64,000 nt of DNA from Escherichia coli (GTDB lineage: Bacteria > Pseudomonadota > Gammaproteobacteria > Enterobacterales > Enterobacteriaceae): assembly GCF_003334335.1 (NCBI RefSeq), contig NZ_QOWQ01000001.1; one strand, written 5' to 3'. This document shows, piece by piece, positions 18,001-24,000 of this stretch (its first letter is position 1; the number at the start of each line of letters is the position of its first letter). Position numbers: made by a program.

Positions 18001-21000
18001 CACCACGATTAAAATATGAACTTTCTTCGGGCCACATACAAAAACACGAGTTTGCGCAATACTGCAAACGCGGTGACTCTTCTGGCATTATTTGGCAATG
18101 CATTGAGCAACTATTGCATGTAAGACTTTTATAACGACTACAAAGCCCCATGTTAAGAACCTCCCTATCCGTATATAATTGCATAATTTCATTGGTTATT
18201 GATGATGTCAATACACCATGATTTTGTAATTTTGCCGGGAAAAATTGCGATTAATCTGTATTTGCTATAATTCTGAGTAAGGCATTTAAAAATGCATTTC
18301 TCGTTATCAAATATGATTATGTTTCACTGATTTAATCTTGCATGGTTGAGAGCGGTCCAGATAACTATCTCATGGTATAAGAATATCTATATCGCAAATT
18401 GTTTTTGAATGACCAGAAGATATCTTGCGAATCTAAGTTATGCATCTTAAATAGTCTTATTTAAGATGTTCAGATCTCTTTGTGTGTTTAACTAACTGAT
18501 AATACTAGGATATGACGAGAGAAGTGATAGGGTGGAATAATAACAAATGAATATTATGAAAAATGGAATGGTTCAAAATTGTAGCAATTTTGAACCATCC
18601 ACAACTGATATTAGCTAAAGAACATTACCGATACGCACAGGATACCCACGATCAGCGTAATCAGATTTCCGATGGAACGCCAGGGTTTAAGCGCCGGGAT
18701 GAGATACGTTGACAGCGTAGGCATGATGAAAAGTATCATGGCAATGAGCGGGCCGCTGATCGCGTAAATCATCGAAATCGCGTTCGGGTTAATGCAACAA
18801 ACAATGAAGGTAATCAGCGATACCAACATAATTGATAGTGCGCGGTTAAATGCACGACTTTTCTTTACACCAACCTGCTGTAGTGTTGTTTTGACGACCT
18901 CTGTGGCACCTTCAATAACGCCAAAGTACGTACCCAGGAATGATTTCGACATCGCAACTACTGCGACAATAATCCCGGAAATTGACAACCATGCTGGGGC
19001 GTTCGGCAGCATAGAAAGCGCCGATAAAATGGTGACCCCTTCTTCTTTAGCAGCTTCAATATACGAAGGTGGAATAGAAAGCAGGCAGCTAAAGACAAAG
19101 AACAGTACACTTATGCAGATGATGAGATAAGCGACTTTCATAATTTTTTTGCATTTATCCATAGCGTGTTCGCCATATTTTTCACGTCTGTCTATGGCAA
19201 ACGTAGAAATAATGGGCGTATGGCTAAAGGCGAAAACCATCACGGGAATCGATATCCATATCTGGTGAAGGGTATTCTGATTGAACTCTACCTGGGTTGT
19301 TAATAGATCAGGTTGCCAACTACCGACAAGGTAAATGGAAAGAAATAAGAAATAGGCAATCAATGGGAATACCAAAAATCCCATTACCCGAATAGTGGCA
19401 TGACGTCCCATCAGAAAAATGAGATTCAGAATTAATACAACACCCAGACTCACCAACATACGGATGCGAAGATCAATAACCATATGCTTTGCCAGCTGTT
19501 CCGTAAGTGAGTTGGTAATTGCCACTGCATATATCAACACGACGACAAAAAAGGCGATGAAGTACAGCGTGGTAATCAGATTACCAATCTTCTTGCCATA
19601 GTAGTGTGTTACCGCGCCCGTTATCCCTTCACCTGCTGATGTTTTTGATGAGAGGATGAACTGGCACAAGGCTTTATGTGGCCAATATGTTAAAGGCCAG
19701 GCGACCAGAGCAGTAATAAACAGGACCACAGCCCCTGCCGAACCTAACTGAATAGGAAGGAAGAGCGTGCCTGCACCAACGGCTGTGCCGTAGAGCGCGA
19801 AACTCCACAGAGTTTCTTCTTTAGACCAAATATTAGACATTATCTGAACGTATCATCTACAAATTAAACAAAATGGAGGGCAATTTACCATAAACCAGGT
19901 TAAGTATGGGAGATTAACGCCCTATCTACCCCTCTATTGGTGGGTTAGTGGTTGCAAACCTTACGTGCCAGTTATGTCTCTGACTGCTGCTCAGGCATAT
20001 TTCCTTTGTGATAAAAATCACTTTTTTTAAACAATTAAGATAACTGTAATTAACAATCATTTACTATTGCACTGTTAATTGGTGCGAGGTTGTGATGAAA
20101 GACGTTGTGATTGTCGGGGCGTTACGGACACCTATCGGCTGCTTTCGTGGTGCGTTAGCGGGTCATTCCGCCGTGGAACTTGGTAGTCTGGTCGTGAAAG
20201 CGTTAATAGAACGTACCGGCGTTCCTGCATATGCGGTGGATGAAGTAATTCTTGGTCAGGTGTTGACTGCAGGGGCAGGGCAGAATCCGGCAAGGCAATC
20301 GGCTATTAAAGGTGGTCTGCCTAATAGCGTTTCTGCAATCACTATTAATGACGTTTGCGGTTCCGGGCTTAAAGCACTGCATCTGGCTACTCAGGCGATA
20401 CAGTGTGGCGAGGCTGATATTGTCATCGCCGGTGGCCAGGAAAACATGAGCCGCGCACCACATGTTCTGACTGATAGCCGCACCGGTGCACAGCTTGGCA
20501 ATAGCCAGTTGGTTGACAGTCTTGTGCATGATGGGTTGTGGGATGCCTTCAATGATTATCATATTGGTGTCACCGCCGAAAATCTGGCTCGCGAATATGG
20601 CATCAGCCGTCAGTTGCAGGATGCTTACGCACTTAGCTCGCAACAAAAAGCGCGAGCGGCGATTGACGCCGGACGATTTAAAGATGAGATCGTCCCGGTA
20701 ATGACCCAAAGTAACGGGCAGACGTTGGTTGTTGATACCGATGAACAGCCACGCACTGACGCCAGCGCAGAAGGCTTAGCCCGTTTAAATCCTTCATTTG
20801 ATAGTCTCGGTTCTGTGACAGCGGGTAATGCATCATCCATAAACGATGGCGCAGCTGCGGTAATGATGATGAGCGAAGCCAAAGCACGAGCGTTGAATTT
20901 ACCCGTGCTGGCCCGCATTCGCGCATTTGCCAGCGTTGGTGTAGATCCGGCATTGATGGGAATTGCGCCGGTGTATGCGACCCGCCGTTGCCTGGAGCGT

Positions 21001-24000
21001 GTAGGCTGGCAGTTGGCTGAAGTCGATCTTATCGAGGCTAATGAAGCGTTTGCTGCACAGGCGCTTTCGGTTGGCAAGATGCTTGAGTGGGATGAGCGTC
21101 GGGTCAATGTCAATGGTGGCGCGATCGCACTCGGTCACCCGATAGGCGCTTCCGGTTGCCGAATCCTGGTTTCTCTGGTTCATGAAATGGTGAAACGTAA
21201 TGCCCGCAAAGGACTGGCAACGCTTTGTATCGGCGGGGGCCAGGGTGTGGCATTGACCATTGAACGTGACGAATAGCTCTGCATTTCCTCCTTACCGATA
21301 AATATCTGCCGTCATTAATCTGTTGAATAATGATGGCTGGCAAGTCGACATACATTTTCTGGGCTCCCTCATTTTTCCATTCTCATGACATATTCGTGAT
21401 CGACACTGCACTTTTTTTAATCCTTAACTTAAAAATGAAACATTGTTTTATTTTTAATTGAAAACCCTAGCCCATGGGCATATCATCCCTTTATAGAGAA
21501 AACGAAACAGTGTTTCACTATCGTTTTCTATTTTCACGCTTTACTGATTATCGGAGGTTGATGTGGACGTAAGACAGAGCATCCACAGTGCGCACGCAAA
21601 AACGCTGGATACCCAAGGGCTGCGCAATGAATTTTTGGTTGAAAAGGTATTTGTCGCCGATGAGTACACCATGGTTTACAGCCACATTGACCGAATTATT
21701 GTTGGCGGCATTATGCCGATAACTAAAACGGTTTCCGTTGGCGGGGAAGTTGGTAAACAACTCGGCGTAAGCTATTTCCTTGAACGTCGCGAGTTAGGTG
21801 TTATCAATATTGGCGGTGCCGGTACGATTACTGTCGATGGCCAATGCTATGAAATCGGTCACCGCGACGCCCTGTATGTTGGTAAAGGTGCAAAAGAAGT
21901 TGTCTTTGCCAGTATTGATACCGGCACTCCGGCGAAGTTTTATTACAATTGCGCACCCGCGCATACGACGTATCCCACCAAAAAAGTCACACCGGACGAA
22001 GTATCTCCAGTCACGTTAGGCGATAACCTCACCAGTAACCGTCGCACGATTAACAAATATTTTGTCCCGGATGTACTGGAAACCTGCCAATTGAGTATGG
22101 GGCTGACGGAGCTGGCTCCGGGTAACTTGTGGAACACCATGCCGTGTCACACCCACGAGCGCCGGATGGAAGTTTATTTCTATTTCAATATGGATGATGA
22201 CGCCTGCGTTTTCCACATGATGGGGCAGCCGCAAGAAACGCGTCATATTGTGATGCATAACGAGCAGGCGGTGATCTCCCCGAGCTGGTCGATCCATTCC
22301 GGTGTCGGAACCAAAGCTTATACCTTTATCTGGGGCATGGTCGGTGAAAACCAGGTCTTTGATGATATGGACCATGTGGCCGTTAAAGATTTGCGCTAGT
22401 TGTGGGCATAAACGAATAAGGTATTGTTATGATTTTAAGTGCATTTTCTCTCGAAGGTAAAGTTGCGGTCGTCACTGGTTGTGATACTGGACTGGGTCAG
22501 GGGATGGCGTTGGGGCTGGCGCAAGCGGGCTGTGACATTGTTGGCATTAACATCGTTGAACCGACTGAAACCATCGAGCAGGTCACAGCGCTGGGGCGTC
22601 GTTTTTTAAGCCTGACCGCCGATCTGCGAAAGATTGATGGTATTCCAGCACTGCTGGATCGCGCGGTAGCGGAGTTTGGTCATATTGATATCCTGGTGAA
22701 TAACGCCGGATTGATTCGCCGCGAAGATGCTCTCGAGTTCAGCGAAAAGGACTGGGACGATGTCATGAACCTGAATATCAAGAGCGTATTCTTCATGTCT
22801 CAGGCAGCGGCGAAACACTTTATCGCGCAAGGCAATGGCGGCAAGATTATCAATATCGCGTCAATGCTCTCCTTCCAGGGCGGGATCCGTGTGCCTTCTT
22901 ATACCGCATCAAAAAGCGGCGTGATGGGTGTGACGCGATTGATGGCGAACGAATGGGCTAAACACAACATTAATGTTAATGCGATAGCCCCGGGTTACAT
23001 GGCGACCAACAATACTCAACAACTACGGGCAGATGAACAACGTAGCGCGGAAATTCTCGACCGCATTCCAGCTGGTCGTTGGGGACTGCCGAGTGACCTG
23101 ATGGGGCCGATAGTGTTCCTTGCCTCCAGCGCTTCAGATTATGTGAATGGTTATACCATTGCCGTGGATGGCGGTTGGCTGGCGCGTTAATTCATTCTTC
23201 TTACTTTTATGACCCTGCCGCATGGCAGGGTTTTTTATACCTGTAGATCATCATAATCCATATCATGGTTATGAAATAATCCATATTAATTATCAATTAA
23301 TGAACTTTATGAATTTTATCTGCTGTAAAATTAGGTGGTTAATAATAATCTCAATAATTCAACTTAATTTGAAAATTGGAATATCCATCACATAACGACA
23401 TGTCGCAGCAATTTAATCCATATTTATGCTGTTTCCGACCTGACACCTGCGTGAGTTGTTCACGTATTTTTTCACTATGTCTTACTCTCTGCTGGCAGGA
23501 AAAAATGGTTACTATCAATACGGAATCTGCTTTAACGCCACGTTCTTTGCGGGATACGCGGCGTATGAATATGTTTGTTTCGGTAGCTGCTGCGGTCGCA
23601 GGATTGTTATTTGGTCTTGATATCGGCGTAATCGCCGGAGCGTTGCCGTTCATTACCGATCACTTTGTGCTGACCAGTCGTTTGCAGGAATGGGTGGTTA
23701 GTAGCATGATGCTCGGTGCAGCAATTGGTGCGCTGTTTAATGGTTGGCTGTCGTTCCGCCTGGGGCGTAAATACAGCCTGATGGCGGGGGCCATCCTGTT
23801 TGTACTCGGTTCTATAGGGTCCGCTTTTGCGACCAGCGTAGAGATGTTAATCGCCGCTCGTGTGGTGCTGGGCATTGCTGTCGGGATCGCGTCTTACACC
23901 GCTCCTCTGTATCTTTCTGAAATGGCAAGTGAAAACGTTCGCGGTAAGATGATCAGTATGTACCAGTTGATGGTCACACTCGGCATCGTGCTGGCGTTTT

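Follow-up and report, generated by a model that had tools for sequence, protein, structure and literature searches.

The GC step between yqeG and yqeF of Escherichia coli follows protein composition and lies within the backbone, beside the probable right-hand end of the ETT2 island

The window, a 64,000-nucleotide stretch of Escherichia coli contig NZ_QOWQ01000001.1 (assembly GCF_003334335.1), begins with an AT-rich block that gives way on the right to GC-richer core genes. Gene names for the window were taken from the RefSeq annotation of E. coli FORC 064, which is 99.96% identical to the window, with a single 1-bp indel between the two in BLAST. The AT-rich block occupies positions 1–18389 of the window (no strand assigned), has a GC content of 0.347 and adjoins the tRNA-Gly gene glyU on its left. 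Its last, rightmost gene is yqeH (17519–18211, minus strand), which encodes a LuxR/EcpR-like regulator with a weak match to NCBIfam EcpR. To the right lie yqeG (18611–19840, minus strand), a 251-bp divergent intergenic region (19841–20091, no strand assigned) and yqeF (20092–21276, plus strand). The RefSeq start of yqeF is one codon later, at an ATG.

This block is ETT2, a type III secretion island of E. coli, here in degraded form. In FORC 064, RefSeq lists ygeQ, type III secretion system (T3SS) apparatus genes, ygeH, ygeG, yqeK, yqeJ, yqeI and yqeH within it. The T3SS set named there comprises SctT, EscR/S/U, PrgH/EprH, a needle protein, SctI, EscJ and OrgA, with several of the apparatus genes frameshifted, and ygeH belongs to the HilA family. 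The region thus combines SPI-1-like T3SS content with yge/yqe regulators, as ETT2 does, and its GC content is well below that of the backbone (0.347 versus about 0.52 in the core). The same distinction is visible at third codon positions. GC3 is 0.313 ± 0.036 (maximum 0.381) in 16 island ORFs and 0.557 ± 0.039 (range 0.467–0.641) in the core, and the core-versus-island synonymous codon score is negative in all 16 long island ORFs. The rightmost gene, yqeH, has a GC content of 0.368, a GC3 of 0.333 and a codon score of −0.186 per codon, and is not present in B2 genomes. An earlier note on this DNA had proposed an acquired AT-rich island on the left, with yqeF and everything to its right belonging to the GC-richer core, and both parts of that description hold.

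The left end of the island falls just outside the window. Mapped via FORC 064, glyU ends about 172 bp to the left of the window, and homology of the left flank stops 100–135 bp before the window start, which marks the left edge beyond the window as the earlier note had it. No tRNA-Gly gene is found within the window itself. ETT2 is reported to occupy the region from the glyU tRNA gene to yqeG (Fox et al. 2020, PMC7058095); here too the region has glyU on one side and yqeG on the other, and island-free genomes join the two. No integrase or recombinase gene is annotated by RefSeq between glyU and yqeG in FORC 064, nor is one found among window ORFs of at least 90 aa. Comparison of the left end (FORC 064 sequence following glyU) with window positions 18300–18500 revealed no att-like direct repeat above chance. 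The best local alignment of the two island ends scores 9.5 against a shuffle mean of 11.1, a score equalled or surpassed in 903 of 1000 shuffles and also lower than in real-sequence controls. A 'CGCAAT' block that seemed by eye to be common to both ends was dropped because the best local alignment falls below the shuffled and real controls.

The two genes on the right flank are of different kinds. YqeG is a serine/threonine-type (TdcC/SdaC-like) amino-acid permease (NCBIfam TIGR00814, E = 7e-155); its gene is a core gene that forms the right flank of the insertion site, with orthologues in 80 species at 73–99% identity. It has a GC content of 0.445, a GC3 of 0.490 and a codon score of +0.068 per codon. 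YqeF is an acetyl-CoA C-acetyltransferase, or thiolase (NCBIfam NF004206, E = 2e-196, with TIGR01930 also above cutoff), likewise encoded by a core gene, with a GC content of 0.536, a GC3 of 0.486 and a codon score of +0.122. The spacer between them has a GC content of 0.363, close to the 0.360 of the adjacent yqeF–kduI spacer in the core, and is 98.4% identical to that of a B2 strain. It is an ordinary AT-rich spacer that contains no breakpoint within E. coli.

Total GC changes twice along this flank. In a 200-bp profile, GC rises from about 0.40–0.46 to 0.50–0.58 at about 20.1 kb. With two steps allowed, the change points fall at 18620 and 20080, and this model is better than a single step by a log-likelihood ratio of 12.3. 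The larger step, from 0.333 to 0.430, lies at about 18.6 kb at the yqeH/yqeG boundary. A single change point is best placed at 18627 for the ranges 10–30 kb and 14–26 kb; only a fit to all 64 kb moves it to 20080. The abrupt change that the earlier note reported between yqeG and yqeF is therefore real (0.445 versus 0.536), and a profile lacking a step at 19.9–20.1 kb, named there as grounds for giving the idea up, is not what is observed; but this step is the smaller of the two, and the main one lies a gene, or 1.5 kb, to the left.

At synonymous sites, only the left step remains. GC3 is 0.333 in yqeH, 0.490 in yqeG and 0.486 in yqeF, so that yqeG and yqeF do not differ, and the synonymous codon score flips sign between yqeH (−0.186) and yqeG (+0.068). 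The GC3 of yqeG is within the core range and far above the island maximum of 0.381. Its observed total GC of 0.446 compares with 0.473 expected from core codon usage and 0.380 expected from island usage, which is not a deficit of island size. The description of yqeG as an AT-rich island gene thus does not stand, and the codon-usage analysis that the earlier note had suggested gives no island-to-core switch between yqeG and yqeF.

Comparison with island-free genomes places the edge directly. In a survey of 5426 complete E. coli genomes, 5411 have an unbroken yqeG–yqeF junction. The yqeH–yqeG junction is contiguous in 4038, and the remaining genomes break at 18437/18440. An empty site, in which glyU is followed directly by yqeG, occurs in 1218 of the 5426, including B2 strains such as E2348/69; presence of ETT2 therefore differs between lineages, and its absence from phylogroup B2 has been reported (PMC7058095). 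The order in island-free E. coli (E2348/69, ATCC 25922 and others) is actS, glyU, 315 bp, yqeG, yqeF and kduI. The YqeG protein WP_000065950.1 is identical in island-free E2348/69 and island-bearing FORC 064. Identity between the window and an island-free B2 strain is uniform along the flank, at 98.5% for yqeG, 98.0% for yqeF, 98.6% for kduI and 97.6% for araE. The empty B2 site may be ancestral or may have arisen by clean deletion.

The right-hand end of ETT2 very probably lies at 18390–18437, in the yqeH–yqeG spacer, with yqeG and yqeF both belonging to the backbone. Junctions were placed by pairwise BLAST and global alignment, as a three-way MAFFT alignment was misleading in the non-homologous parts. 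The B2 match to the window begins at 18437 or 18440, and not in the yqeG–yqeF spacer, where the earlier note had expected such a comparison to find the insertion point. In a cryptic Escherichia clade the flank begins at about 18390, with homology to L003 starting at about 18370–18391. Two island-free lineages thus differ over a 47-bp zone (18390–18436, no strand assigned), which is missing in island-free B2 E. coli but which Escherichia sp. MOD1-EC7003 carries at its island-free site. For this ambiguity, homology to the spacer downstream of yqeG was sought in outgroup genera, and none was detectable outside Escherichia. The 3' spacer of yqeG (18437–18610, minus strand) is backbone with a GC content of 0.299; it adjoins glyU in island-free genomes and is 90.8% identical to that of E2348/69. 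It contains a predicted intrinsic terminator of yqeG (18566–18600, minus strand), with 16 pairs followed by a T run. The edge is reached 174–221 bp after the stop codon of yqeG, on the far side of this terminator, and both yqeG and yqeF are therefore ancestral backbone genes.

If yqeG were instead the last gene of the island, which would then end in the yqeG–yqeF spacer, its total GC of 0.445, below the range of the window's core ORFs (0.491–0.560), would be accounted for, as would the rise by about +0.09 at 20.08 kb and the global single change point at 20080. This reading is scarcely credible given that yqeG is kept beside glyU in the 1218 island-free genomes and joined to yqeF nearly throughout the survey, that the two genes are syntenic in about 70 species that do not carry ETT2, and that yqeG equals yqeF in its core-like GC3 and synonymous codon usage. 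In one review (PMC11068852), yqeF and yqeG are loosely counted as 'left in ETT2'. On the backbone reading, annotation of yqeG as island cargo should be avoided.

The yqeG-to-yqeF offset is a conserved effect of protein composition. Combining each protein sequence with core codon usage gives an expected GC of 0.473 for yqeG and 0.569 for yqeF, a predicted step of +0.096 compared with the observed +0.090. In 70 other Enterobacteriaceae species with synteny, GC of yqeF exceeds that of yqeG by 0.077 ± 0.016. The difference in these species is +0.129 ± 0.009 at codon positions 1 and 2 and −0.027 ± 0.041 in GC3, and the step recurs in all other genera. Ile, Leu and Phe are abundant in YqeG, a polytopic membrane permease, and lower the GC of the first two codon positions, which in yqeF is raised by the Gly and Ala of a soluble thiolase. 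ETT2 would have been inserted between glyU and yqeG. A reading of raw GC overshoots the edge by one gene because the GC of yqeG (0.445) is midway between island (0.35) and core (0.52), and yqeG merges visually with the island because its 3' spacer is AT-rich.

The flank is not perfectly typical of the core, as yqeG and yqeF are both about 0.03 below the GC expected from core codon usage. It is conceivable, though very unlikely, that the two genes were acquired earlier and have partly ameliorated, or were replaced together with the island flank, so that the boundary would lie between yqeF and kduI at about 21.3–21.5 kb. Their GC3 of about 0.49 is lower than that of kduI (0.556) and about 1.7 sd below the core mean (0.557 ± 0.039), they have the weakest positive codon scores, and their GC is 0.027–0.033 under the core-usage expectation. 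The deficit is also present in other Escherichia (L004 and L005; GC3 0.42–0.43 for yqeF, 0.46 for yqeG and 0.57 for kduI), and is not seen in Citrobacter or Enterobacter. However, the gene order kduD–kduI–yqeF–yqeG is kept family-wide, in about 70 Enterobacteriaceae species. Amino-acid identity to Citrobacter and Salmonella is 90–92% for YqeG and 91–94% for YqeF, similar to KduI (87–95%) and AraE (93–96%), and divergence from B2 is no greater for the two genes than for their neighbours. Their GC3 also stays inside the core range of the window (minimum 0.467), and the weak codon bias of poorly expressed genes would be a sufficient explanation. Import of yqeG and yqeF together with the island was set aside as a main explanation in view of the divergence between B2 and the window, which is as low as in core neighbours.

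The mild GC3 deficit seen in Escherichia and not in Citrobacter or Enterobacter (0.42–0.49 versus 0.56 in kduI) might be a lineage-specific footprint of the AT-rich island on its flank, although this is improbable. Such a footprint could arise if spreading H-NS silencing relaxed codon selection or changed mutation, or if flank alleles had long ago been transferred along with ETT2. Ordinary weak codon bias is the alternative explanation for the same deficit.

The biological weight of these observations is small, and their value is methodological. Where the core gene beside an island codes for a hydrophobic membrane protein, raw GC taken alone puts the boundary one gene off. Correct placement comes from GC3 or synonymous codon usage, combined with comparison with island-free genomes.

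That ETT2 lies between glyU and yqeG is already known and well documented, as is the island itself. The published island has the same location and gene set, including epa/epr-type T3SS apparatus genes, ygeQ and yqeH, and the boundary found here does not differ from the published one. Low GC (36.9%, PMC11068852; 0.347 here) and widespread pseudogenisation are common to both, whereas intact ETT2 measures 29.9 kb and the isoform here is shortened to about 18.5 kb. TRNA-linked pathogenicity islands of the Hacker type, such as those at selC and pheV, resemble ETT2 in their tRNA neighbour, atypical GC, virulence-type cargo and strain-variable presence. Unlike them, ETT2 here has no annotated integrase or mobility gene and no end repeats above chance, and its tRNA gene is unduplicated. 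Differences in GC between genes for membrane and soluble proteins are a familiar form of composition heterogeneity, of which yqeG and yqeF are an ordinary case, the contrast residing wholly in the first two codon positions and standing out only through its nearness to a real island.

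Both the AT-rich island at the left of the window and the GC step near 20 kb are real, and genome comparison places the island boundary at 18390–18437, not between yqeG and yqeF. The window matches FORC 064 (NZ_CP022664.1) with 99.96% identity over 42.4 kb and belongs to the E. coli chromosome. In the RefSeq annotation of FORC 064, xdhA, actS, and tRNA-Gly (glyU) lie left of the window. From glyU rightwards, the order is ygeQ, type III secretion genes (several frameshifted), ygeI, ygeH, ygeG, yqeK, yqeJ, yqeI, yqeH, yqeG, yqeF, kduI, kduD, and araE. The gene glyU is located ~172 bp before position 1, and the sole tRNA found by ARAGORN in the window is a tRNA-Met. 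Given the gene order in this near-identical genome, the AT-rich block from 1 to ~18.4 kb is the ETT2 island, here as an isoform shortened to ~18.5 kb. For the region matching 1–18389, the FORC 064 annotation lists several T3SS genes as pseudogenes, namely those for YscQ, EscU, OrgA, a lytic transglycosylase, and a LuxR-type regulator. The yqeG (18611–19840, − strand) and yqeF (20092–21276, + strand) ORFs fit exactly the coordinates of the earlier note.

GC content per 1-kb window is 0.30–0.36 up to 18 kb, 0.39–0.43 at 18–20 kb, and 0.47–0.51 beyond. With one change point, likelihood segmentation of 10–30 kb has its best fit at 18627, where GC rises from 0.333 to 0.494. A two-step fit, with change points at 18620 and 20080 and GC of 0.333, 0.430, and 0.503, yields an LLR gain of 12.3 over one step. 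A one-step optimum at 20080 results only from a fit to all 64 kb. Gene-body GC is 0.368 in yqeH, 0.445 in yqeG, and 0.536 in yqeF. The yqeG–yqeF spacer (0.363) is like the next core spacer, yqeF–kduI (0.360). The earlier note had read an abrupt compositional change across yqeG–yqeF, and a step at 19.9–20.1 kb is indeed present (change point 20080), but the transition has two stages, and the larger one lies at the other end of yqeG.

The right edge was located by megablast of 16300–22400 against 5426 complete E. coli genomes, with matches in 5420. B2-type strains (E2348/69, ATCC 25922, MS 57-2, and others) match solely from 18437 or 18440 rightwards. The island-free E2348/69 has the order actS, tRNA-Gly, 315 bp, yqeG, yqeF, kduI, and its homology with the window begins at 18437. 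A probe of the empty junction is unbroken in 1218 genomes and elsewhere splits at exactly that junction point. The yqeH–yqeG junction is unbroken in 4038 genomes, and the yqeG–yqeF junction in 5411 of the 5426. In a second island-free configuration, found in Escherichia sp. MOD1-EC7003 of a cryptic clade, glyU-proximal sequence is joined to the window from ~18390. Since the two configurations differ, the edge is given as a range; it lies in the yqeH–yqeG spacer, 174–221 bp past the yqeG stop. The right-hand edge formerly drawn at yqeG–yqeF is thus displaced: island-free genomes keep yqeG next to glyU, and the step there is not the island boundary.

Island-free and island-bearing strains share the YqeG accession WP_000065950.1. 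At the nucleotide level, E2348/69 and the window are evenly similar throughout the backbone, with identities of 98.5% in yqeG, 98.4% in the yqeG–yqeF spacer, 98.0% in yqeF, 98.6% in kduI, 97.8% in kduD, and 97.6% in araE. The only more divergent backbone segment is the 174-bp spacer abutting the junction (90.8%). The edge lies beyond a strong terminator-like hairpin (18566–18600, − strand). Because the backbone spacer 3′ of yqeG is also AT-rich, with a GC of 0.299, the edge is invisible to composition alone.

The 20-kb step is restricted to codon positions 1 and 2. GC at position 3 (GC3) is 0.333 in yqeH, 0.490 in yqeG, and 0.486 in yqeF. A core-versus-island codon score was built from synonymous choices only, with the tested gene excluded from the reference sets. 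It is below zero in each of the 16 long island ORFs (−0.12 to −0.29 per codon), at +0.068 in yqeG and +0.122 in yqeF, and between +0.10 and +0.34 in the 26 core ORFs. Codon usage, proposed as a check of a yqeG–yqeF boundary, therefore changes sign between yqeH and yqeG instead. The acquired island postulated left of that boundary stands as ETT2, but yqeG itself is core-like in synonymous usage.

YqeG is a hydrophobic polytopic membrane protein, a TdcC/SdaC-type serine/threonine permease, and YqeF is a thiolase. With codons drawn from the core usage of the window, their protein sequences give an expected GC of 0.473 and 0.569, a predicted step of +0.096 versus +0.090 observed. In 70 other Enterobacteriaceae species, where no ETT2 adjoins the genes, yqeF exceeds yqeG by 0.077 ± 0.016 in GC, with a difference of +0.129 ± 0.009 at positions 1 and 2 and −0.027 ± 0.041 in GC3. 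The confinement to positions 1 and 2, the protein-based prediction, and the recurrence across species show that the step is a property of the YqeG and YqeF proteins rather than a signature of foreign DNA.

Both genes also display a mild GC3 deficit (~0.49 versus a core mean of 0.557 ± 0.039), and each lies ~0.03 GC under the expectation from its protein sequence and core codon usage. Being equal in both, the deficit lends no support to a boundary between them. It recurs in E2348/69 (L001) and in other Escherichia (L004 and L005), so that GC3 in Escherichia spans 0.42–0.49 versus 0.56 in kduI, and is absent in Citrobacter and Enterobacter orthologues. Orthologue identities and synteny are ordinary. 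The likeliest cause, we infer, is that codon bias is weak in genes expressed at low levels.

In other E. coli lineages (e.g. O145 RM8995, E500002, PEC414, and LR-24), ETT2 deletions end at 17448, 17601, 17911, and 18320, in the yqeI/yqeH region and the yqeH–yqeG spacer, not at 18437. These scattered end points fit the known piecemeal attrition of ETT2. In E2348/69 (L001), the homology block with the window is split by an ISEc13 element (IS4-like) that has inserted between kduD and araE (L001:12956–14329, equivalent to window ~23219–23226). In MOD1-EC7003 (L003:7300–9600), the glyU–yqeG site is empty, kduI and kduD have been lost entirely and yqeF largely, and the 423-bp remnant of yqeF is followed directly by araE.

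A genome-collection scan found YqeG orthologues (73–99% identity) in 80 species, with kduD, kduI, and yqeF upstream of yqeG in nearly all whose locus reaches far enough. Wherever in reach, glyU and actS lie downstream (Huaxiibacter, Lelliottia, Leclercia, Silvania, an Enterobacter sp., E. albertii, and a cryptic Escherichia), separated from yqeG by 0.3–5 kb of variable DNA. This arrangement identifies glyU–yqeG as the variable slot, with yqeG as its fixed right flank. In Citrobacter sedlakii and C. amalonaticus, yqeH-like genes lie downstream of yqeG in DNA of lower GC, suggesting that a related regulator module fills the equivalent slot in Citrobacter. The YqeH homologue (77–78% aa) lies ~1.8–7.7 kb downstream of yqeG in four loci (L006, L008, L009, and L012; C. 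sedlakii, C. amalonaticus, and a Citrobacter MAG). In C. sedlakii (L006) it is accompanied by homologues of YqeI (48% aa) and YqeJ (41% aa); YqeI matches only weakly (~24% aa) in L008 and L009, and L012 has none.

Outside Escherichia, yqeF and yqeG lie ~1.7 kb apart in most Enterobacteriaceae, with genes for an AceR-like LysR regulator and a PACE-family efflux transporter in the gap (L013:6417–7858 in C. werkmanii). In Escherichia, Pluralibacter, Superficieibacter, and a few others, the two genes are separated by a spacer alone, of ~220–330 bp (window 19841–20091). This difference makes the spacer an indel point at the family level, unconnected with ETT2 or GC.

The left edge had been predicted beyond the window start, and it lies there narrowly: flank homology with island-free genomes stops 100–135 bp before position 1. 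In the glyU–yqeG spacer of E2348/69 (L001:7860–8008), the 63-bp stretch found after glyU in strains with ETT2 occurs a second time as a partial copy (L001:7946–8008 versus L002:3538–3601, 93.8% identity), preceded by ~86 bp of related, diverged sequence. The copy may have been left behind by earlier insertion or excision events. Fox et al. 2020 (PMC7058095), citing Ren et al., suggest that ancestral B2 lacked ETT2, which was acquired later. ETT2 may instead have been acquired earlier and lost from B2 afterwards, because remnants occur in E. albertii and in a cryptic clade.

The RefSeq annotation of FORC 064 lists no integrase or transposase within the island, and its two ends share no direct repeat beyond what chance would give. 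ETT2 resembles integrase-mobilised islands in adjoining a tRNA gene, but lacks their hallmarks. ETT2 has been reported next to glyU with a GC content of 36.9% (PMC11068852) and described between yqeG and the glyU tRNA gene (PMC7058095). The location found here agrees, and the position of the island is biology already known.
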